Assembly: GCA_003858585.1 (NCBI GenBank)
Contig: RQZE01000012.1
Location: forward strand, 13,278-45,277
Source of the DNA: Erysipelotrichaceae bacterium OH741_COT-311
Lineage (GTDB): Bacteria; Bacillota_I; Bacilli_A; Erysipelotrichales; Erysipelotrichaceae
DNA: 32,000 nt
Direction of reading: 5' to 3'
Shown: positions 1 through 19,848 of the stretch, in pieces
Layout: the number at the start of each line of letters is the position of its first letter
Numbering within the stretch: the stretch's first letter is position 1
Notes under the pieces: model-generated
Told to the model about the DNA's origin: nothing
What the model saw: only the letters and a program-made list of their open reading frames with translations
Databases searched by the model: none
Translations under genes and position numbers: made by a program

Positions 1-143
1 AATTACGTGTCATATTTTTTACCAAGAGTATGCGTGAAGGTTTTGAAACATCTAGTGTTTTACGTAAAAAAGTGAAAAAAGCATTTGAGGAACATGGAAT
101 TAAAATACCATTTCCAACACGTGTTACATACAATAAGGAGTAG
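1..143 (+). CDS. C-terminal fragment of an MscS-family mechanosensitive channel (5' end outside window)
   Basis: The frame is open from the window edge (codons phased from nt 3): ...LRKKVKKAFEEHGIKIPFPTRVTYNKE*, with TAG at 141-143. The GI.IPFP C-terminal motif is typical of MscS-type channels. Only about 46 codons are visible. Confidence 0.5.
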   Translation, partial: LRVIFFTKSMREGFETSSVLRKKVKKAFEEHGIKIPFPTRVTYNKE

Positions 144-145
144 TT

Positions 146-1195
146 ATGGTATTTGGGATATTGCTAATCATTGTAGCCATTTGTTTTATACGCTTAGGCT
201 ACATTATAAAAAAAGATAAACGTTCATTGGCTTTGGGAGTATGGACATTTAATAGTGTGGTTGCTTTAGGGATATTTGTTTTGGCGCTTTTTGTTGCCAA
301 TACACATTTACTACCGGAGTGGCTTATGACTTTGATTATGGGTGGCATTCTTTTTGTTCTCTTTTTACTGTTAATCTTGCCATTTTTTATCTTGTTGTTA
401 TTTTTAATTAACGGTATTTTAATCTTATGGAAAGAAGGTATTAAATTACGAAATGTCTTAACTTTATTGATGACCTTCTTAATCCTCTTTTATTTAGTGT
501 TTTGGCCAAGTGTCGGTTCGATTATTCCGGATGGACCTGCCGGTTATCTCTATTTGTATGTCGGATTTATCTTTGGCTTTACGATTGTCTGGATTAGTGT
601 TTATGGCTTATCAAACTATTTAAATCAAATACACTTCTTTGTCAAACACATTGATTACATTGTAGTTTTAGGATGTGCTTTAAATAAAGATCAAGTAACA
701 CCGTTGCTTGCTTCAAGGGTAGATAAGGCATTGAAACTAGCAAGAAAGCATCCTGAGGCAACCGTAATTTTTTCAGGTGGAAAAGGAAGTGATGAACTGA
801 TTAGTGAAGCTATGGCAATGGCAAATTATGCAAGTAGTCAAGGTTTTGAGGTAGGGCGTATGTTACTGGAAGAACATTCAAGCAATACCAAAGAGAATAT
901 CGAAAACTCCTACACCATGATGAAAGAAACCAAACAAGTCGCTCTGGTTACGAGTAATTATCATGTCTTGCGTGCATTGATGATTGCCAAAACATTAGGA
1001 GTATCGTGTATTGGGTATGGTGCAAAAACAAAGTTATATTTTGCTTTAAATGCCTTCTTACGTGAATTTGTAGGGTATCTTTATTTGTATAAGAAACAAT
1101 TACTTCGATTGTTGGCATACTATACCTTTGGATATTTGGTGTTAATTGCAATAAAAGAACTTTTAGAATTATATTTTTTAAAAATGACTAGATAA
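146..1195 (+). CDS. DUF218 (YdcF/SanA/ElyC-type) domain membrane protein
   Basis: 349-aa ORF with AAGGAG 5 nt upstream of ATG 146. The N-terminal half is multi-pass hydrophobic. The C-terminal block VVLGCAL...VIFSGGKG...EEHSSNTKENI...LVTSNYHVLRA matches the DUF218 pattern as I remember it. Confidence 0.75.
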   Translation: MVFGILLIIVAICFIRLGYIIKKDKRSLALGVWTFNSVVALGIFVLALFVANTHLLPEWLMTLIMGGILFVLFLLLILPFFILLLFLINGILILWKEGIKLRNVLTLLMTFLILFYLVFWPSVGSIIPDGPAGYLYLYVGFIFGFTIVWISVYGLSNYLNQIHFFVKHIDYIVVLGCALNKDQVTPLLASRVDKALKLARKHPEATVIFSGGKGSDELISEAMAMANYASSQGFEVGRMLLEEHSSNTKENIENSYTMMKETKQVALVTSNYHVLRALMIAKTLGVSCIGYGAKTKLYFALNAFLREFVGYLYLYKKQLLRLLAYYTFGYLVLIAIKELLELYFLKMTR

Positions 1196-3791: not shown

Positions 3792-3896
3792 CTTATTGCC
3801 ATAAATTGTGTAATATAATATATTGCAATAATATCAAAAAATTATTTTGGGGTATTATGCCTTTTTGGTGTTTATGCCCAAGAAAGGATGGCGTAC

Positions 3897-6800
3897 ATGA
3901 AGGAAAAACAAACATTTCGCATTATCGAATTAGGGAAAAAAGCGACTCGTCGTGATTATTCAAAGGTAAGTGGTTCTTTGGAGCTTCCAGATCTTGTTGA
4001 AATTCAAACAGCTTCTTTTGACTGGTTAGTCAAAGAAGGGATTAGGGAAGTTTTTGAGGATATTTATCCGATTCGAAACTATGGCGGTAACATTCGTCTT
4101 AAATTCGTTGATTATGAATTTGGTACACCTAAGTATAGCGTAAGTGAATGCAAATATCGTGAAACAAACTATGCAGCTCCACTAAAGTCTAAAATGGAGT
4201 TAGAGATTACAGATCCTGAAACAGGGGAAGTATTAACAAAGTGGGAAGATGTCTTTTTAGGTGACTTTCCGTTAATGACGGATACAGGTACGTTTATCAT
4301 TAATGGTGCTGAGCGTGTTATCGTATCTCAAATTGTGCGTTCTCCGGGGGCATATTTTGATATTGCTTCGGAAGAAAAGACAGGCAAGGATACATTTAAT
4401 GCGGAATTAATACCAAGTCGTGGAACATGGTTAGAGTTTATGACGGATGGTAAAAAGACAGCACTTGGTCGTCTTTTAAATATGTCAATTGATCGTAAGC
4501 GTAAGATTTTATCTACAATCTTATTTAAAGCGATTGGTTTTTCTTTAAATGTGGAAACAGGGGATGATGTTTTTGAGACTGTTTCAATTAAGAAGTTTTT
4601 AAAGGCTTTGAATTTTCCGGTGTATGAAGAGGTTGCGGTTGATGGTGAACAACGTGAGCTATTAGGGCAATACTTACATTTATATACATCAATGTTTGGT
4701 AATTATGAAGAGATTATTAATACCTTACAGGCGGATAAAGTAAAAACAACGCAAGAAGCGTTATTGAATATTTATGAGAACCAAAGATCGGATGAGGTTC
4801 CTACGATCGATGGGTCGATTACATTAATGAATGCGAAGTTCTTTGATCATAAGCGTTATGATTTAACAAAGGCTGGTCGTTATAAATTAAATAAGAAGTT
4901 AAATGTAATTGAGCGTATGGAAAAAAATATTCTAAAAGAGAATATTTATGATGCAACCGGTAAGTTGTTGGTTAAGAAGAATACCTTAATTACAAAGAAA
5001 GAGCGTGAAGTATTAAAAGAAGGTTTGGTACATGGTGGACACATGGAGGTCTTTCCATTTAATTATACGTTTTCACATCCGGATGTTGCTGTTGTTGAGA
5101 CAAAGTATAAATTGGGTTTACTTGGTCGTATCCTAGCTACAGATGTTGAATTAAAGAAAACCTTCTTAGAAAAGGGGACTGTATTAACGGAAAAAGATGT
5201 AGATCTTTTAGCGAAAGAAGTGACATCAGTTTCAGTATATGCAGGAATTCTTGCGAAAGAAGTTGTTTTAACAAAAGACATTGTTTCTAGTGTTTTAAAT
5301 TTCGGTCAAAGATTTTATGTGTTAGGTCGTGTTGTGGATGAAAACAATGAAGATCTATATATTAATAATGAATTAGCGGTGCAACGTTATATTCCGGATA
5401 CAAAGATAGATCGTTTAAGCAGTGAACATGAAAGTTTTATTAAATCATTAGTAACAAGTGGTAATAAAGTAAAAGTGTATTTGGTTGGGGCGGCTTGCCA
5501 AGTGGTGAGTGTTGCCTCTGTGGATAGTTTTGATTTTGAAGTACGTGTGATTGGGATTGACCCACTTATGAAGAAGCGTACGATTACTATGTCAGATATG
5601 ATTGCGTTTTATTCGTATGAATTAAATATGTTAGATGGCATTGGTAATGATGATGACATTGACCAATTGGGAAATCGTCGTATTCGTACGGTTGGTGAGT
5701 TAATTCAAAACCAATTCCGTGTAGGTTTAGCTCGTATGGAGCGTGTGGTAAAAGAGCGTATGTCAATTACAGATATTGCTAGTTTAACACCAAAGTCATT
5801 GACAAATATTCGTCCATTAACTGCGGCAATTAAAGAGTTTTTCTCGTCTTCACAATTGTCTCAATTCATGGACCAATTAAATCCTTTAGCAGAATTAACA
5901 AATAAACGTCGTATTTCGGCGTTGGGTCCGGGTGGATTAACGCGTGAGCGTGCCGGTTTTGAAGTGCGTGACGTTCATAATTCACATTATGGTCGTATTT
6001 GTCCAATTGAAACGCCGGAAGGTCCAAATATCGGTTTGATTTCAAACTTAACAACGTATGCTCGTATTAATGAGTATGGATTTATTCAAACACCATATCG
6101 TGTGGTTAAGAAAAATGGTGTGGTAAGTGAAGAGTATAAGTATTTATCTGCGGATGAAGAGGCGGATTATGTTATTGCCCAAGCCAACGAATGTGTGGAT
6201 GGGAAATTAATCAATGATCAAGTTGTCGTTCGTGTAGCAGGAGAAACGGTACAAGTGCCTCGTGAAGAAGTGGAGTTGGCGGACGTTTCACCAAAACAAA
6301 TTGTTTCAGTTGCGGCAGCTTGTATTCCATTCTTAGAAAATGACGATGCTTCTCGTGCCTTAATGGGTGCAAACATGCAACGTCAAGCGGTTCCTTTATT
6401 AAAACCAAGTTCACCTTATGTTGGTACAGGGATTGAGCATCGCATTGCTCGTGATGCTGGTAGTGGCTTGGTTGCTACTGGTAGTGGAGTAGTAAGTTAT
6501 GTCGATGCGAATAAAATTATCGTCAGTGAAGAAACCGGGGATAAGGAATATGAATTAACAAAATTTAGACGTTCAAACTCTGGTACGTGTTTAAATCAAC
6601 GACCAATCGTAAAGCGTGGAGAACGTGTGGAACGTGGTGATATCTTAGCGGATGGTCCTTCAATGGAAAATGGAGAGTTGGCGCTAGGACAAAACGTTAC
6701 GATTGCCTTTATGACATGGCATGGGTATAACTATGAAGATGCGATTATCTTATCAGAGCGTCTTGTAAAAGAGGATATGTATACGTCAATTCATATTGAA

Positions 6801-8018
6801 GAATATGACATTGAATGTCGTGATACAAAGCTTGGTCCTGAAGAAATTACTCGTGATATTCCAAACGTAAGTGAAAATGCATGTCGTCATTTAGATGGTC
6901 GTGGTATCGTTATGGTTGGTGCGGAAGTAAAAGAGGGCGACATCTTAGTTGGTAAGGTTACACCAAAGGGTCAATCAGAAGTATCGCCGGAAGAAAAACT
7001 ATTATTAGCAATCTTTGGTGAAAAATCACGTGAAGTGCGTGATAATTCCTTAAAGGTGCCTCATGGTGGGGCTGGTATTGTTCAATCGATTCGTATCTTT
7101 AAGCGTAGCGAAGGGCATGAACTTCCTCCTGGGGTAAATGAAGTTGTAAAAGTTTATATTGTTCAAAAACGTAAAATCTCGGAAGGAGATAAGATGGCAG
7201 GTCGTCATGGTAATAAGGGGGTTATCTCTAAAATTTTACCGGTAGAAGATATGCCGTTTATGGCGGATGGTACGCCGGTGGATATCATGTTAAATCCATT
7301 TGGGGTTCCTTCACGTATGAACATCGGACAAGTCTTAGAAATTCATTTAGGGATGGCTGCTAAGAAGTTAGGTGTTAAGTTTGCAACACCGGTATTTGAT
7401 GGTATTTCTAATGAAGAATTAAAGGCAATTATGGAAGAGGCACAAGTATCTGCTGATGGTAAGATTGTCTTACATGATGGTCAAACAGGAGAAGCTTATG
7501 ATGAGCGTATCTCGGTAGGGGTTATGTATTACATTAAGTTGGCTCACATGGTTGATGATAAACTACATGCTCGTGCGACTGGTCCTTATTCGTTAGTAAC
7601 ACAACAACCGTTGGGTGGTAAGGCTCAAAATGGTGGTCAACGTTTTGGGGAAATGGAAGTTTGGGCTCTGGAGGCTTATGGGGCTGCGCATACGCTTGCT
7701 GAAATCTTGACGGTTAAGTCAGATGATATTAATGGTCGTACAAAGACGTATGAAGCAATTATCAAGGGTAAAAATATTCCTGCTCCAGGCATTCCGGAAT
7801 CATTTAGAGTGTTAAAACATGAACTTCAAGCTTTAGCGATTGATGTAAAGATGTTAAATGAAGATGGAAGTGAAGTAAGCATTGAAAAGATTGAAGAGGG
7901 CGATGGTACTAGTGAAAAAGTAGTTGCGCCAATGGATTTCAATGAAGATGGATTATCAATCCAAACGGAAGAAGAGTTACAAGAAGCCGCAATTGTCGGT
8001 ATCGATGAAGAAATGTAG
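3897..8018 (+). CDS. rpoB: DNA-directed RNA polymerase subunit beta (expanded, about 1373 aa)
   Basis: Motifs [40 protein letters not shown] (rif cluster I), [22 protein letters not shown] and [24 protein letters not shown] at 3883-3888 is 8 nt from ATG 3897. The track start 3888 is in frame but overlaps the SD. Confidence 0.97.
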
Positions 8019-8029
8019 GAGGTAGCGTG

Positions 8030-11000
8030 ATGAGTGTTAATAATTTTGCAGCCTTACAAGTAGGTATTGCATCACCAGAACGTATTAAAGAATGGTCTTA
8101 TGGTGAAGTTAAAAAACCGGAAACAATCAACTACCGTTCACAAAAACCGGAACGTGACGGTTTATTTTGTGAAAGAATTTTTGGTCCATCGAAAGACTGG
8201 GAATGTTACTGCGGTAAATATAAGAAAGTAAGATATAAAGGGGTTATTTGTGATCGTTGTGGAGTTGAAATCACAAAGTCAAATGTGCGTCGTGAACGTA
8301 TGGGGCATATTGAACTTGCAGCTCCGGTGGCTCACATTTGGTATTTGCGTGGAATCCCTTCACGTATGTCATTGTTGTTAAATATTACGCCAAAGGCGTT
8401 AGAAGAAGTTGTATATTTCGTATCTTGGGTGGTTACCGATCCCGGGGAAACAAAATTACAATTTAAACAAATCTTATCGGAACGTGAGTATCGTGAAAAT
8501 GTAGCGATTTATGGTACCGGTAAGTTTGTTGCACAAACGGGAGCGGAAGCGGTTCGTACATTGCTTGAAAAGTGTGATGTTAAGGCGGAACAAGCGGAAG
8601 TGGTAAAAGAGTTGGAAGGTGCACAAGGTGATAAGCGTAAGAAGTTAATTAAGCGTTTAGAGACAATCAATGCGTTTGTAAACTCTGAAAATCAACCGGA
8701 GTGGATGGTACTTACTATGCTTCCGGTAATTCCGCCGGATTTAAGACCGATGTTGCAGTTGGATGGTGGTCGTTTTGCTACAAGTGATTTGAATGATTTA
8801 TATCGTCGTGTGATTACACGTAACAATCGTTTAAAGAAATTATTAGAGCTTGGTACTCCGGCTATCATTGTGCAAAATGAAAAGCGTATGTTACAAGAAG
8901 CAGTGGATGCTTTAATTGATAATGGTCGTCGTTCTAAGCCGGTTACCGGTGCTGGGGGACGTGCATTAAAGTCATTGTCGCATAGTTTAAAGGGGAAACA
9001 AGGTCGTTTCCGTCAAAACTTATTAGGGAAACGTGTTGACTTTTCAGGGCGTTCCGTTATTGCGGTTGGACCGGATTTAAAGATGTATCAATGTGGTATT
9101 CCACGTGAAATGGCAATTCAATTGTATAAACCTTTTATTATCAATGAAATTGTAAATGCAGGGATTGCATCCAATCCGAAAACAGCTGAGCGTTTAATTG
9201 ATCGTTTGGATGCTCGTGTTTGGGATATTGTAGAACAGGTAATTGATCATCATCCGGTATTCCTAAACCGTGCTCCTACGCTTCATCGTTTAGGAATTCA
9301 AGCGTTTAAGCCTAAGTTAGTAGAAGGACGTGCGATTCGTCTTCACCCATTAGTATGTACAGCGTTTAATGCTGACTTTGATGGTGACCAAATGGCGGTG
9401 CATTTACCATTATCGGAAAAGGCTCGTGCGGAAGCTGAAATTTTAATGTTAGGTTCTAACAATATCTTAGGTCCAAAAGATGGTAAGCCAATCGTTACGC
9501 CATCACAAGATATGGTGCTTGGTAACTTCTATTTAAATATGGAAGAAACAGCTCAAGAATTCTATGAAAAAGCGGAAGTAGTAGCGAAGACAATTGGTGA
9601 AACGGAAGCAGATATGTGGCGTCGTTTTGGAGATAATGAAGGACATGCCTTTAAGGATGTCAATGAAGTATTAATGGCGTATGATCAAAAAATTGTTCAC
9701 TTACATACTCGTATTGCTTTATTAGGTTCTTCATTAAAGAAAATATGTTTTAGTGACTATCAAAATAATTCATATTTGATTACAACCGTTGGTAAGGTTA
9801 TCTTTAATGAAATGTTTCCAAAAGATTTCCCTTATATTAATAAAGTAACGCATGAAAGCTTAAAGAATACCTTAGATGAGTATTTCTTGCCGGTAGGAAG
9901 TAATCTTAAGGAAGCAGTAGCGAATATGCCATTGAATCCTGAGTTTAAGAAAAAAGATTTATCTCTTGTTATTGCGGAAGTCTTTAAACGCTATCGTACT
10001 GAAGGTACTAGTGTTATCCTTGATAGCATTAAGGATTTAGGGTTTGAGTATTCAACGGTTGCCGGTATGACGGTATCATTAGCGGATATTAACGTTGCTC
10101 CAAATAAACAAGTGTATGTTGATAAAGCGAAAGAAAAAGCAGCTGTTTTACAACAGTTATTACAAAGAGGTCAATTAACACCTGCTGAGTGGGAACGTCA
10201 TTTCTCTAAGCTTTGGGCAGATACAAAAGATGTGATTGGGGATGAAGTTATGAGTAATTTACCTCGTAAGTCACCAATCAATATGATGGCGGTATCCGGT
10301 GCCCGTGGGAACAAGTCACACTTTACACAGTTAGCGGGTATGCGTGGATTAATGGCTCGTCCAACACAGTCAAAGAGTCGTAAGGAATATCAACCTTCGA
10401 TTATTGAGGTTCCTATTTATTCGTCATTCCGTGAAGGATTAAACGTGTCTGAGTTCTTTATTTCTACCCATGGGGTGCGTAAAGGGTTAACGGATACGGC
10501 GTTAAAGACAGCAGAATCTGGATATTTAACAAGACGTTTAGTCGATGTTGCTCAAGATGTGATTGTTATTGAAGAGGATTGTGGTACAGATCGTGGTTAC
10601 TTAGTAAGTGAAATTCGTGATCGTAAAACAAATACAGAGATTGAAAAATTATTTGATCGTTTAGTTGGTCGTTATACAAAAGATGCGGTAATTCATCCGG
10701 AGACAAAAGAAGAAATCTGTCCGGCAGATACGTATATGGATGAAGAACTTGCGGTAAAGATTACAAAAGCCGGTGTAAAAGAAGTCTTAATTCGTAATAC
10801 CTTCACTTGTGATAGTACAACAGGTGTATGTCGTAAGTGTTATGGTCGTAATATGGCAACAGGTAAATTGGTTGAAAATGGAGAAGCAATTGGTATTATG
10901 GCTGCTCAATCAATCGGTGAACCTGGTACTCAGTTAACAATGCGTACCTTCCATACAGGAGGGGTTGCCTCAGGTAACGATGGAGATATTACACAAGGGT

Positions 11001-11821
11001 TACCTCGTGTTGAAGAGTTATTTGAAGCACGTTGTCCAAAGTATGTAGCTGTTTTATCTAAGATTGATGGAGAAATTACTGAAATCGTAGAAGCAGATGG
11101 TACAACAGGTATGCGCATTACCGTATCAAATGATAAGGAATCAATTGAACATAAGTGTGATTTAACACAAACAATTCGTTCTTGGATTAAGGTTGGTACC
11201 AAAGTGAAAGCTGGTGATAAGCTAACGGAAGGTCAAGTAAATCCAAAAGAATTAATTGAAGTTGCAGGGGTATTGGCAGTACAAAACTACATCTTAAAAG
11301 AAGTAAAACGTGTATATGCTTCTCAAGGGATTGATATTTCAGATAAACATATTGAAGTTATGATTCGTCAAATGTTAAAGAAAATCATCGTGCTTGATGG
11401 AGGAGATACAGGATTATCAGCCGGTCAAACATTATCTTTAACACGTATGAAAGAAATTAACTTAAATACGTTGTTAAGTGGTAAAAAACCTGCGAAGTTT
11501 GGTCCTACATTATTAGGTATTTCAAAGGCTTCCGTGGAAACAGATTCTTTCTTATCAGCGGCATCATTCCAAGAAACAACAAAAGTCTTAACGGATGCAG
11601 CGGTAAATGGTAAGGTTGATAAATTAGTTGGATTAAAAGAAAATGTTATTATTGGTAAATTAATTCCAGCTGGTACAGGTTCAAAATTTGAGCGTGAAAC
11701 AACAGAAATGATTCATGCACGTGCATTAGAATTGGTTGAAGATCGTGAAGTAAGAAATATGATGGAAGAAGAACATCAACTTCCGGAAGAAGTATTACCG
11801 AAAGAAGCATATTTTGAATAA
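8030..11821 (+). CDS. rpoC: DNA-directed RNA polymerase subunit beta'
   Basis: Zn-finger motif [22 protein letters not shown], catalytic [12 protein letters not shown], and the trigger-loop/bridge-helix regions. GGAGG at 8018-8022 is 7 nt from ATG 8030. GTG 8027 is the track start. Confidence 0.97.
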
Positions 11822-16825: not shown

Positions 16826-17362
16826 TTATTTTGCAATCCAATCTTGATTTGTTTCACAGACTAAGCGTGCCGGAATACCGACGGCTGTGCAGTGTTCCGG
16901 AACATCTTTTAAGACTACGGCATTTGCTCCAATGCGAGCGTGTTTTCCAACGGTAATATTGCCCAGTACTTTAGCACCTGTACCAATGACAACGTGATCT
17001 TCAATGGTTGGATGACGTTTACCAAGGGTTGCTTTTACGCCACCTAAGGTTACATTGTGATAAAGTTTGACATAGTCTTTAATAATTGCTGTTTCTCCAA
17101 TGACAACGCCCATACCATGGTCAATAAATAATCCAATACCAATTTGAGCTCCCGGATGAATTTCAATACCTGTTAGAAAACGAGCCAATTGAGAAATCAT
17201 GCGTGCCAGAAATTTTAGCTTAATCTTGTATAAAACATGGGCAAGGCGATAAAAGCCTATGGCATGTATGGATGGATATAAGAAAAGAATTTCAAAGATA
17301 CTGTTTGCAGCAGGATCACTTTCTTTAATGTGTTGAATTTGTGCTTTTAAATCTTTAAACAT
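16826..17362 (-). CDS. cysE: Serine O-acetyltransferase
   Basis: 178 aa. N-terminal SATase helices ([27 protein letters not shown]), then hexapeptide repeats [28 protein letters not shown]...[26 protein letters not shown] is 6 nt upstream. Confidence 0.92.
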
Positions 17363-17496
17363 AAGCTTACCTCAAATTTATTCTATCATTATACACTATC
17401 TATTAAAATTTGCGGTAGATAAGACTTCCAGTACTTACATTTTACTATATTTCTTTTATATTTTAAAGAAAAGGCTTATTGGTTTAGTCAAAGTAT

Positions 17497-17525
17497 TTGC
17501 ATTACCTATAAAATAAAAATATAAT
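17497..17525 (+). promoter_or_regulatory. Sigma-A promoter of the leader ORF-hflX-cysK operon
   Basis: TTGCAT (17497-17502), 17 nt, TATAAT (17520-17525). Confidence 0.6.
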
Positions 17526-17550
17526 TATTCTATTGAATGGAGGTTAGATC

Positions 17551-17580
17551 ATGAGCTGTTGTTGTCTAGGACGTAAATAA
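17551..17580 (+). CDS. Putative regulatory leader peptide MSCCCLGRK (three consecutive UGU Cys codons)
   Basis: GGAGG (17539-17543), 7 nt, then ATG 17551: atg agc tgt tgt tgt cta gga cgt aaa taa taa. It lies 63 nt upstream of hflX and is too short for the ORF track. Confidence 0.45.
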   Translation: MSCCCLGRK

Positions 17581-17643
17581 TAAATAAGAAGGAGTGTCTT
17601 AGAAGTTTTAAGTCATTACTTTCTTATAGAAGGGAATGATGAA

Positions 17644-18912
17644 ATGAGAAAAGCAATTTTAGCGGGATTTAACCTATCAAAACATGATGCGGAATTTCAA
17701 CAATATATCGAAGAGTGCATTCAGTTGGCAAAGGCAAATCACATAGATGTAATAGATGTGATGATACAAAAAGGACGTAGCCTGGATCCAAAGAGTGTTT
17801 TTCGTTATGGAAAGTTAATGGAACTTGCAGATAGGGCAAGAGAATTAGACGTGGATTGTATTATTTTCTATAATGAGTTATCGATTGTGCAATTAGAGCG
17901 CATTCAACAAGAATGCCAGTGTCCGGTTATTGATCGTACCAATTTAATTTTAGATATTTTTTCTTCACGTTCTAAGACAAAGATAGCGAAGCTTCAAACA
18001 GAGATGGCACGTATTAAATATAGTTTACCAAGAATTTTAAAACAGGAGTATGGTGTTGGAAATCAACGTGGTGGTAGTGCCAATAATAGAGGTGCCGGAG
18101 AAAGTCGTTTGGAGTTAGTAAAGCGTAATATTCGTTTTCAACTTACCGATTTAAAGAAACAGATTCAAGTCTTAAAGAAACATCAAGCATTGCAGGATCA
18201 ATCTCGTAAGCATAATCCATTGAAGAAGATTGCATTAGTGGGTTATACCAATGCCGGAAAGTCGAGTTTGATGAATGCGATTTTAAAGAAAAATCAACGT
18301 TCAAAGGAAAAGATGGTGTTTCAAAAGGATATGTTGTTTGCCACATTGGATACTACAGTGCGTAACATTCAATTAGGGCATCATCAAGAGGCGTTGTTGT
18401 TTGATACGGTTGGTTTTGTTTCAAATTTACCACATTTACTGATTGAAGCGTTTCAATCGACGTTAAAGGCGGCGTGTGATGCCGATGTATTGATTCATGT
18501 TATGGATGCTAGTAATAGTCAGTTGGAATTACAAAGAGAGGTAACCATGGAGACATTAAGACAAATTCAGGCAGATCATATTCCAATAATTCATGTTTAT
18601 AACAAAATGGATTTAGTAAAAGATGCATCTTTGTTTGATGGTTTATGTATCTCTGCCATTCATCAAGAAGGGATTGATGCGTTATTGGATCAAGTGTCTA
18701 AGATCCTTTATCCCAATGAGTTTGATTTTGAGTGTTTAATTCCATATAAAGAGTTAAGTATTCTTCAGTTTTATCGTAAGGTGTGTAGAATTGTAAAGCT
18801 TGCGGAAAAGGAGGATGGCATTCAGTATCATGTTTCAGGGAGTTTTCAAGTGGTAAAGGGCTTGTATCCTTATCGTTGTAAAGAAGAGAATATACATCAA
18901 GAATATCATTAA
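17644..18912 (+). CDS. hflX: GTPase HflX
   Basis: 422 aa. HflX N-domain (...ARIKYSLPRI...GGSANNRGAGESRLELVKRNI...), G1 GYTNAGKSSLMN, G3 DTVGF, G4 NKMD. Confidence 0.9.
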   Translation: MRKAILAGFNLSKHDAEFQQYIEECIQLAKANHIDVIDVMIQKGRSLDPKSVFRYGKLMELADRARELDVDCIIFYNELSIVQLERIQQECQCPVIDRTNLILDIFSSRSKTKIAKLQTEMARIKYSLPRILKQEYGVGNQRGGSANNRGAGESRLELVKRNIRFQLTDLKKQIQVLKKHQALQDQSRKHNPLKKIALVGYTNAGKSSLMNAILKKNQRSKEKMVFQKDMLFATLDTTVRNIQLGHHQEALLFDTVGFVSNLPHLLIEAFQSTLKAACDADVLIHVMDASNSQLELQREVTMETLRQIQADHIPIIHVYNKMDLVKDASLFDGLCISAIHQEGIDALLDQVSKILYPNEFDFECLIPYKELSILQFYRKVCRIVKLAEKEDGIQYHVSGSFQVVKGLYPYRCKEENIHQEYH

Positions 18913-18924
18913 GGAGGAAGAAGA

Positions 18925-19848
18925 ATGTTATATCAAAATGTTGTAGAGACTATAGGGTTAACACCCTTAATTAAACTGAATCGTTTGAAAGAACAATTAC
19001 AGTTAAAAGGCAATGTATATGTAAAAGTAGAGGCGTTTAATCCGGGGGGGTCTGTAAAAGATCGCATTGCGTATCAAATGATTAAAGATGCCTTAGATAA
19101 GAAAGAAATCAATGAAACAACGCATTTAGTAGAGGCAACAAGTGGAAATACAGGTGTTGGTTTGGCGATGGTTGCATCGGCATTTGGATTGAAGTTAACA
19201 ATTGTTATGCCATCGACGATGTCTATTGAGCGTCAAAAGTTAATCAAGGGCTATGGGGCAGCATTAGTGCTAACCGATGGTAGTTTAGGTATGAAGGGTG
19301 CAATTGCTAAGGCGCAAGAGATTTTAAAAGAAGATCAGAACGCGAAGATGATGTTACAGTTTGAAAATCCTTCAAATCCAAAGGCACATTTATTGCATAC
19401 CGGGATTGAAATTTTAAATGATTTACCTAGTGTAGATGTTTTTGTGGCAGGAGTTGGAACCGGTGGAACCATTACTGGAGTAGGAAGTTATTTAAAGTCA
19501 AAAAAGAGTGACGTAAAGATTTATGCAGTAGAGCCTGTAGAGTCAGCGGTTTTAAGTGGAAAGCAACCTGGTCCGCATAAAATTCAAGGAATTGGTGCAG
19601 GATTTGTGCCGGAAGTTTTGAAAAAGGAGCTTATTGATGATATTATACAAGTAAGTAGTGAACAGGCGATTTCTCGTAGTAAGCAGTTAATGCAAGCAGA
19701 GGGCATTATGGCTGGGATCTCATCTGGAGCGGCTTTAGAAGCTGGAATTCAGTTGGCACTACAAGAAGAATTCAAAGACAAAGATATTGTGGTATTATTA
19801 CCTGATACAGCTGAGCGCTATTTAAGTACAGTATTATTTGGAGAGTAG
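18925..19848 (+). CDS. cysK: Cysteine synthase A (O-acetylserine sulfhydrylase)
   Basis: 307 aa. PLP-lysine motif KVEAFNPGGSVKDRIA, plus TSGNTG and GVGTGGTITG. AAGGAGG SD. It starts 12 nt after the hflX stop. Confidence 0.93.
   Translation: MLYQNVVETIGLTPLIKLNRLKEQLQLKGNVYVKVEAFNPGGSVKDRIAYQMIKDALDKKEINETTHLVEATSGNTGVGLAMVASAFGLKLTIVMPSTMSIERQKLIKGYGAALVLTDGSLGMKGAIAKAQEILKEDQNAKMMLQFENPSNPKAHLLHTGIEILNDLPSVDVFVAGVGTGGTITGVGSYLKSKKSDVKIYAVEPVESAVLSGKQPGPHKIQGIGAGFVPEVLKKELIDDIIQVSSEQAISRSKQLMQAEGIMAGISSGAALEAGIQLALQEEFKDKDIVVLLPDTAERYLSTVLFGE

Follow-up and report, generated by a model that had tools for sequence, protein, structure and literature searches.

Within a 32,000-nucleotide stretch of contig RQZE01000012.1 from Erysipelotrichaceae bacterium OH741_COT-311 (the whole of which we call the window), a nine-codon open reading frame (ORF) with three consecutive UGU cysteine (Cys) codons lies between the divergently transcribed gene cysE and the gene hflX, the latter being followed by cysK. 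We propose, with moderate confidence, that this short leader is a ribosome-mediated translational attenuator of hflX that senses Cys-tRNA and is laid out like the leader of ermC. The co-transcribed cysK is probably controlled as well. The proposal builds on the conservation of the ORF and its Cys codons in a second, divergent lineage, on two mutually exclusive sets of helices that are found in both lineages, and on a computed change in the accessibility of the hflX Shine-Dalgarno (SD) sequence when a ribosome is placed on the Cys codons. If the proposal holds, HflX would come under the control of amino acid starvation, which would point to a physiological role beyond heat and antibiotic stress.

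The leader ORF and its conservation

An earlier reading of the window, made from its letters alone (the first-pass annotation), had described the promoter, the GGAGG motif and its spacer, the ORF with a second taa, the distances of 63 and 281 nucleotides (nt) and the gaps between the downstream genes, and all of these were recovered on re-reading (Table 1). The ORF ends 63 nt before the hflX ATG (17644) and is contained in the 281-nt intergenic region (IGR) between cysE and hflX (17363-17643), the whole element being about 115 nt long. A promoter scan gave the identical promoter site as TTTGCA-18-TATAAT, with 10 of 12 positions matching; promoter-like matches are generally frequent in this AT-rich region (11, against 5.9 expected). 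Transcription is predicted to start at ∼17532, which would leave a 5′ untranslated region of roughly 20 nt. The end of the −10 element and the leader ATG are separated by 25 nt, with GGAGG in between.

Cysteine is as rare in the window as had been claimed, accounting for 0.98% of the 9504 codons in its ORFs, and an in-frame Cys-Cys pair occurs once in 24 ORFs. As a mere string, TGYTGYTGY is common (10 matches versus 2.1 expected), and most of its occurrences are out of frame. We also compiled a background set of 3158 SD-preceded ORFs of 3 to 40 codons from 605 kb of loci. Runs of at least two Cys codons made up ∼1% of this set and runs of at least three about 1 in 3000, the latter being confined to the window, the near-identical sequence L001 and one other; the remaining Cys-run short ORFs that were checked lie inside long coding frames. 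The unusual feature is an in-frame Cys run within an SD-preceded short ORF, not the bare string.

The closest genome is an Erysipelotrichaceae metagenome-assembled genome (L001), whose HflX is 96% identical and whose leader ORF is identical to that of the window. Scanning a genome collection with HflX returned this one close relative, the rest being distant homologues, and further HflX relatives reach at most 55% identity. One of these is L010, which shares 55% identity with the window in HflX and 70% in CysE; its IGR, 262 nt long, contains a homologous leader. The window leader reads AATGGAGGTTAGATC ATG AGC TGT TGT TGT CTA GGA CGT AAA TAA TAA and the L010 leader reads AATGGGGGTTAGATC ATG TAC AGT TGT TGT TTA AGA CAA ATA TAA TAA. 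The two peptides, MSCCCLGRK and MYSCCLRQI, are of equal length and align without gaps, and the double stop is common to both. The block from the SD to the start codon, Cys codons 4 and 5 and Leu codon 6 are kept, while codons 2, 3, 7, 8, and 9 differ, so that the window has three UGU codons and L010 has two. The first-pass annotation had tied its proposal to the presence of the ORF and its Cys codons in the IGRs of relatives, and both are retained in the divergent IGR of L010.

Conservation extends to the surrounding signals. The leader SD block, AATGG(A/G)GGTTAGATCATG, is one base apart between the two lineages, and in L010 a promoter-like TTGAAT-16-TATAAT (2124-2151) precedes the leader SD by a similar distance. 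Downstream of the ORF, the window and L010 share the block AAGAA(G/A)GA(G/A)TGTCTTA, the block TAAGTCAT-N-ACTTTCTT in the anti-SD region and a purine-rich hflX SD at 9 nt from the start codon.

Two further elements were seen at the cysE-proximal end of the IGR, an inverted repeat TATCTA-N13-TAGATA at 17397-17421 of the window and a palindrome, AATTCCTCGGAATT, at the equivalent end of L010 (2033-2046). They differ between the lineages and may be operator sites of cysE.

Alternative helices at the hflX ribosome-binding site

The RNA between the leader and hflX can be divided into four segments (Table 1). In free RNA, the minimum free energy fold of both lineages combines helix 1:2 with helix 3:4, so that segment 2 is paired with segment 1; when a ribosome masks segment 1, the partner of segment 2 is segment 3. 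Mutually exclusive structures, for which a fold of this region had been suggested earlier, are thus present in both lineages as 1:2 plus 3:4 on one side and 2:3 on the other. In the window, the ground-state helix 3:4 consists of CUUUCU (17619-24) with AGAAGG (17628-33), GUCAU:AUGAU and GUUUU:GAAAU; it reaches 17645 and buries both the hflX SD and the start codon. The free RNA of L010 forms UUAAGACA:UGUCUUAA as helix 1:2 plus CUUUCUUU:AAAGAAAG as helix 3:4, the latter at 2251-58 : 2273-80, 9 nt upstream of the hflX ATG. Helix 2:3 of the window comprises the pairs 17584-96 : 17614-27 and 17598-603 : 17607-12. The Cys codons belong to no conserved helix and are unpaired or weakly paired.

The first-pass annotation had pointed out a stem between 17565-72 and 17596-603 and had taken it, with the following UUUU, for a weak terminator-like hairpin. 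The stem exists, and RNAfold extends it to 9 base pairs (bp; 17565-73 : 17595-603), but it is helix 1:2 of the present scheme; the UUUU is missing in L010, and terminator scans of the window and L010 IGRs found no terminator, in line with the annotation's own remark that no strong one was visible. We compared the helices by hand from the folds (MAFFT misplaces a gap in segment 2b, and there are only two independent sequences). Between the window and L010, helix 1:2 shows one C-G to U-A change, the kind of compensatory change that the annotation had proposed looking for in this stem, and two G-U to A-U changes, with 0 pairs broken. The arms of helix 2:3 are each 2 nt longer in L010. In L001, the sole substitution in the region of helix 2:3, G17591A, turns a G-U into an A-U pair.

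We then modelled the ribosome as a masked footprint of 30 nt. Placed on the Cys codons, the footprint makes both sequences form hairpin 2:3 (17584-17627 in the window) and leaves the hflX SD free; placed at the stop codon, it lets helix 3:4 return in both. The probability of an unpaired SD in free RNA, with a ribosome on the Cys codons and with a ribosome at the stop codon was 0.36, 0.94, and 0.20 in the window, 0.43, 0.95, and 0.20 in L001, and 0.17, 0.69, and 0.17 in L010. When the spacer was shuffled with dinucleotides preserved, the observed switch score was attained by 0 of 300 shuffles for the window, 0 of 300 for L001 and 1 of 300 for L010. Moving the A site codon by codon under three footprint assumptions gave a predicted probability of 0.93 to 0.94 for an unpaired hflX SD with any of the window's UGU codons in the A site. 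In the window, the ON state is predicted for an A site from Cys3 to about Gly7, and the switch is off with the A site at Lys9 or the stop codon; in L010, the ON state is predicted for an A site at Cys4 or Cys5 plus one neighbor (Ser3, or Leu6 with one setting).

In L010, the leader SD, spacer and start (GUUAGAUCAUGUA) can pair over 13 bp with the loop that lies between segments 2 and 3 (2168-2180 : 2229-2241). The window has no counterpart of this helix, whose presence narrows the predicted ON state of L010 to the Cys codons. A tiny out-of-frame ORF, ATG ATG AAA TGA (17636-17647), overlaps the hflX start within segment 4 of the window and is probably incidental.

The proposed switch would operate as follows. 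A ribosome would translate the nine-codon ORF on a transcript starting at about 17532. With plentiful Cys-tRNA it would continue as far as the tandem stops, where its footprint would extend over the beginning of segment 2 (17584 onward), upon which the anti-SD CUUUCU would capture the hflX SD; after its release, segment 1 and segment 2b would pair and lock the OFF state. If Cys-tRNA were scarce, the ribosome would pause with its A site at a UGU codon, masking segment 1 and leaving segment 2 exposed to capture segment 3, and the hflX SD would remain single-stranded and hflX be translated. The cysK gene, 12 nt downstream, would benefit because its mRNA is protected or polarity is relieved. We infer that the ORF is translated, that ribosomes stall at its Cys codons and that cysK follows hflX.

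Concerning cysK, no promoter-like or terminator-like site was found on the plus strand at 18200-18925, between hflX and cysK, and cysK is predicted to be co-transcribed with hflX. It has a strong SD of its own, so that any effect of the leader on cysK would need mRNA protection or polarity. The first-pass annotation had suggested a tRNA-Cys- or cysteine-sensing switch for the cys operon. The sensing part of that suggestion is the one we favor, but the direct output would be sequestration of the hflX SD, and among the leader-bearing sequences cysK follows hflX only in the window lineage (the window and L001).

Table 1. Coordinates of the leader, the predicted RNA segments, the neighboring genes and the Cys-run leaders upstream of cysE in other contigs
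Feature	Position	Strand	Remarks
Promoter TTGCAT-17-TATAAT, sigma-70-type	17497..17525	+	leader-hflX transcript; consensus match only, predicted
Leader SD GGAGG	17539..17543	+	7-nt spacer, ATG at 17551
Leader ORF MSCCCLGRK with tandem stops TAA TAA	17551..17583	+	ORF 17551-17580, second taa 17581-83
Three UGU Cys codons	17557..17565	+	proposed sensing (stall) site; read from sequence
Segment 1, leader codons 5-8, UCUAGGACG	17565..17573	+	9 bp with 17595-17603 (RNAfold)
Segment 2: 2a AUAAGAAGGAGUG (SD-like anti-anti-SD), 2b UGUCUUAGA	17584..17603	+	pairs with segment 1 or 3
Segment 3, anti-SD CUUUCUUAU at 17619-27	17605..17627	+	pairs with segment 2 or 4
Segment 4, hflX ribosome-binding site	17628..17646	+	SD AGAAGG 17628-33, spacer, ATG 17644-46
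cysE (serine O-acetyltransferase), divergent	16826..17362	-	cysE/EpsC-type; TIGR01172, 240.7 bits
hflX (ribosome-splitting GTPase)	17644..18912	+	TIGR03156, 345 bits; gene under proposed direct control
cysK (O-acetylserine sulfhydrylase)	18925..19848	+	TIGR01139, 419 bits; own strong SD TAAGGAGGAA
L030 putative attenuator	31-200		ORF 84-149; MKLQHCCICCMKHHCPCKTAF, CCICC...CPC
L031 Cys-run leader	3-68		
L117 putative attenuator	3816-3985		ORF 3870-3935; MRIQSCCCCCFHVTVPAKTAF, CCCCC

Cys-run leaders among relatives and in known systems

Relatives were surveyed by 12 contig look-ups, covering relatives of both HflX and CysE. In most of them, the IGR is absent or short. Of 101 hflX loci, only those of the window, L001 and L010 have an SD-preceded ORF with a Cys run in front of hflX, and cysE adjoins all three; the null set for this comparison was drawn from metagenome proteins scanned with an HflX alignment, among which the matches listed were all at most 40% identical. 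A pattern scan of metagenomes with GGTTAGATCATGN{48,78}TCATNACTTTCTT gave 0 matches, and nhmmer searches of 118 sequences with both leader alignments yielded no extra copies. At hflX loci without cys genes (L016-19, L112-113), there is no upstream IGR at all; such relatives keep hflX in a common MocA...hflX...esterase-plsY-gyrB neighborhood. The HflX of L010 is no nearer to that of the window than is the HflX of related lineages that have the divergent cysE-hflX arrangement and no leader. Because of this, the leader is probably older than the window, L010 and the leader-less lineages and was then lost repeatedly.

As a separate observation, hflX stands between a divergent cysE and a downstream cysK in several Erysipelotrichaceae lineages (window 16826-19848; L011-L015, L114-L116). 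Among the leader-less lineages with divergent cysE and hflX, cysK follows hflX in three of four, and in L114-116 the contig end cuts the next gene. Some relatives (L020-29) have cysK and cysE divergent and no Cys ORF. In the cysK-cysE IGR of L020, a string TCG TGT TGT TTA TGA (SCCL*; ∼2385-2400 on the minus strand, the same in L021 and L022) resembles the core of the window leader. Lacking an in-frame start, it was discounted as either a chance match or a vestige.

A scan of all loci revealed nonhomologous Cys-run leaders upstream of cysE in L030/L031 and L117 (Table 1), the CysE cluster of L117 carrying the source name Erysipelotrichaceae. Those of L030 and L117 have a promoter TTGAC(T/A)-17-TACACT, the SD GAGGGA, a 21-codon ORF with five to seven Cys codons, a G+C-rich terminator with a U-run and a 9-bp antiterminator, CUGUCCCUG:CAGGGGCAG. 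The L030, L031, and L117 leaders have no Rfam match, and nhmmer found no homology between them and the window leader. Because the frame of the antiterminator strand shifts between L030 and L117 while the Cys run stays in codons, the comparison suggests conservation at the RNA level for this strand and at the codon level for the Cys run. Equilibrium folds of both leaders always retain the very stable terminator; the antiterminator appears only in nascent-RNA folding, where stalled and unstalled ribosomes are poorly separated. Since these leaders precede cysE, Cys-run leader ORFs recur beside cysteine genes in Erysipelotrichaceae. They resemble the window leader in belonging to the same family by source names and in being SD-led short ORFs with UGU/UGC runs beside a cysteine biosynthesis gene, but they are 21 codons long, use a classical terminator and antiterminator and directly precede cysE. 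If our model is correct, ribosome-mediated cysteine sensing would exist in Erysipelotrichaceae in two mechanistically different forms, a terminator-based design at cysE and an SD-sequestering design at hflX.

In Bacillota, the control of cysteine genes is normally ascribed to T-box, S-box or CymR. Rfam searches of the IGR at the gathering threshold and with E values up to 10 returned no T-box, riboswitch or leader family, and seven related loci gave 0 Rfam matches; a covariance-model match to the T-box was found neither in the IGR nor in the related loci. At the gathering threshold, the L10 leader (2033-2154) was the only Rfam match of the whole window, and the relaxed search of the IGR gave just two chance microRNA matches. 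Compared with leaders of the trpL/hisL type, the window leader is likewise a short ORF with translation signals, the SD-start block being conserved in L010, and it has a run of the putatively sensed codon against a background of scarce Cys. In contrast to that type, the window and L010 IGRs have no terminator/antiterminator. The genes downstream of the leader are hflX first and cysK second (window and L001) or a PHP-domain gene (L010), with cysE divergent.

In ermC, the ground state is 1:2 plus 3:4, and a stall in segment 1 frees segment 2 for segment 3, exposing the ribosome-binding site. The constrained folds of the window and L010 show the same four segments, with segment 4 containing the SD or start codon of the regulated gene. 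The ermC leader encodes a drug-dependent arrest peptide and controls an rRNA methylase, whereas the window leader would respond to hungry Cys codons and control hflX and cysK; the drug-dependent arrest motifs IFVI, Arg-Leu-Arg (RLR) and +x+ are missing from both MSCCCLGRK and MYSCCLRQI. If the model is true, the four-segment layout of ermC, whose translational attenuation is mentioned in PMC6310831, would be usable for amino acid sensing.

The first-pass annotation was aware of nothing similar, a statement that does not stand: upstream ORFs (uORFs) with Cys codons have been described (bioRxiv 10.1101/834739; PMC1262725; PMC8632094), and so have uORFs of hflX (PMC6310831; PMC8632094). In the literature searched, Cys-codon leader ORFs are known only from Actinobacteria and from Rhodobacterales cysS, with none reported for Bacillota or Erysipelotrichaceae. 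In mycobacteria, ribosomes stalled on a polycysteine ORF block structures that sequester a downstream ribosome-binding site (bioRxiv 10.1101/834739, Canestrari et al.). These leaderless short ORFs (LL-sORFs) share with the window leader consecutive Cys codons in a short upstream ORF, translational control (proposed for the window) and the lack of an intrinsic terminator. However, they are leaderless, about 30 codons long and found in Actinobacteria, and in them the Cys tract is itself the pairing partner of the downstream SD, whereas the window ORF is SD-led, has nine codons, resides in a Bacillota host (Erysipelotrichaceae) with hflX as the first controlled gene, and acts in our model on an SD whose partner is CUUUCU (17619-24) via the 1:2 / 2:3 / 3:4 relay. 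Other actinobacterial Cys leader peptides without terminators are also known (PMC1262725). The uORFC-8-2 element upstream of Rhodobacterales cysS has two tandem conserved Cys codons and was read as a Cys-tRNA-sensing ribosome-mediated attenuator (PMC8632094). It is like the window leader in these tandem codons and in that interpretation, but it is alphaproteobacterial, carries Cys at positions 14 and 15 in the first stem, has a U-run terminator and controls cysS. The uORFs upstream of hflX in Listeria (rli80) and Bacillales (uORFC-6-1) encode an Arg-Leu-Arg motif, and the rli80 leader works through an intrinsic terminator (PMC6310831; PMC8632094). They too are short ORFs upstream of a Bacillota hflX amid alternative RNA structures, but the window leader lacks RLR and terminator and has Cys codons and adjacent cys genes.

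Competing explanations and neighboring features

Several points weigh against the attenuator model. Only two independent lineages are available (L001 being near-identical to the window), and no meaningful covariation statistic is possible. The gene directly switched is hflX, not a cysteine gene; in L010, hflX is followed by a gene for a PHP-domain protein instead of cysK, and in the window the SD of cysK overlaps the hflX stop. Four lineages with divergent cysE and hflX (L011-15, L114-116) have an IGR of 67 to 79 nt, or an equivalently short upstream sequence, and no leader, and because these related lineages do without it the leader appears to be dispensable. On the structural side, the footprint sizes were assumed, the conformations of the free window RNA are near-isoenergetic (−22.0 versus −21.9 kcal/mol) and the stability of the whole leader is unexceptional relative to shuffled sequences (z of −0.7 and −1.5). 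In addition, a pseudoknot 2a:3b could in principle form alongside 1:2b, beyond what the folding tools score.

It is unlikely, in our judgment, that the leader is instead a drug or general translation stress sensor for hflX, like rli80 or uORFC-6-1, in which arrested ribosomes open the hflX site and the Cys codons are incidental. Such a sensor would fit the established uORF control of hflX (PMC6310831; PMC8632094), the fact that the switched SD belongs to hflX in both lineages, the likeness of the four-segment layout to drug-induced ermC-type leaders and the window's ON state for stalls at Leu6-Gly7. However, the two peptides lack the Arg-Leu-Arg and +x+ motifs, their conserved part, Cys-Cys-Leu, is not a known arrest motif, and neither a terminator (in either IGR) nor an Rfam match was found. 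A stall at initiation or at codon 2, as expected of the lincosamide type, opens the SD of L010 unreliably (0.17 to 0.49), and the leader is absent at hflX loci without neighboring cys genes. Sensing of cysteine or tRNA-Cys is favored over antibiotic sensing because Cys-run leaders precede cysE in other Erysipelotrichaceae contigs. The best PDB match of HflX is 8a57_D, named "GTPase HflX" (263 bits), which we take to be the Listeria HflXr complex. This could speak for a drug sensor, but for telling the HflX type from the HflXr type the score is uninformative and was discarded, since a preference for the Listeria over the Escherichia coli chain may simply mirror phylogeny.

We consider it very improbable that the switch acts on transcription, with the hairpin 17565-73 : 17595-603 and UUUU (17606-09) as a weak terminator, or with untranslated leader/hflX RNA as a substrate for Rho, so that the ribosome's position on the Cys codons decides about read-through. 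The hairpin is real and covaries, it is followed by UUUU in the window, and the L030 and L117 elements do use intrinsic terminators; Rho-type polarity has been proposed for the terminator-less actinobacterial Cys leaders (PMC1262725). Yet the stem closes a 21-nt loop, L010 has UAUGUGAU after the stem instead of a U-run, the scans of either IGR yielded no terminator, and the anti-SD:SD conservation and the switch statistics would be left unexplained. Rho-dependent polarity could nevertheless be a secondary consequence of a translational switch. Hardly credible to us is an element that senses nothing, in which the conserved blocks are promoter, operator (e.g., a repressor site) or mRNA stability elements of the divergent cysE and hflX promoters and the Cys codons are there by chance. 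The abundance of promoter-like matches in this AT-rich region, the restriction to two lineages, the unexceptional folding energy of the whole leader and its absence from related lineages would all agree with it. Against it, start, ORF length, Cys-Cys and double stop are kept gap-free while the surrounding proteins are 55 to 70% identical, the switch score was equaled by at most 1 of 300 shuffles per lineage, Cys-run short ORFs are rare in the background set, and the conserved blocks follow the −10 element and hence fall within the transcript.

Returning to the Cys-tRNA-sensing attenuator, a further-reaching and doubtful version of it would make hflX a deliberate target, with a hungry-codon (Cys-tRNA) sensor inducing both cysteine synthase and a ribosome-splitting GTPase, as part of a family-wide cysteine "ribulon" that includes a ribosome rescue factor in Bacillota. 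This idea derives from the position of hflX between cysE and cysK in several lineages, from the two unrelated designs of Cys-run leaders and from the lack of T-box matches. If true, rescue or recycling of starved ribosomes would be coupled to resynthesis of the missing amino acid.

The identities given earlier to cysE, hflX, and cysK are borne out by their TIGRFAM matches (Table 1). The cysE gene adjoins the leader in both lineages and is not under cis control by the leader RNA. The gap between hflX and cysK is 12 nt, and the ATG of the isochorismatase-family gene (19850) comes 1 nt after cysK. CysK has 0 Cys in 307 residues and CysE has 2, which fits the sulfur-sparing composition of cysteine biosynthesis enzymes. 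Elsewhere in the window, the ribosomal protein L10 leader (RF00557, 72.5 bits) lies upstream of rplJ-rplL, downstream of which are apparent rpoB and rpoC genes (3888-11821).

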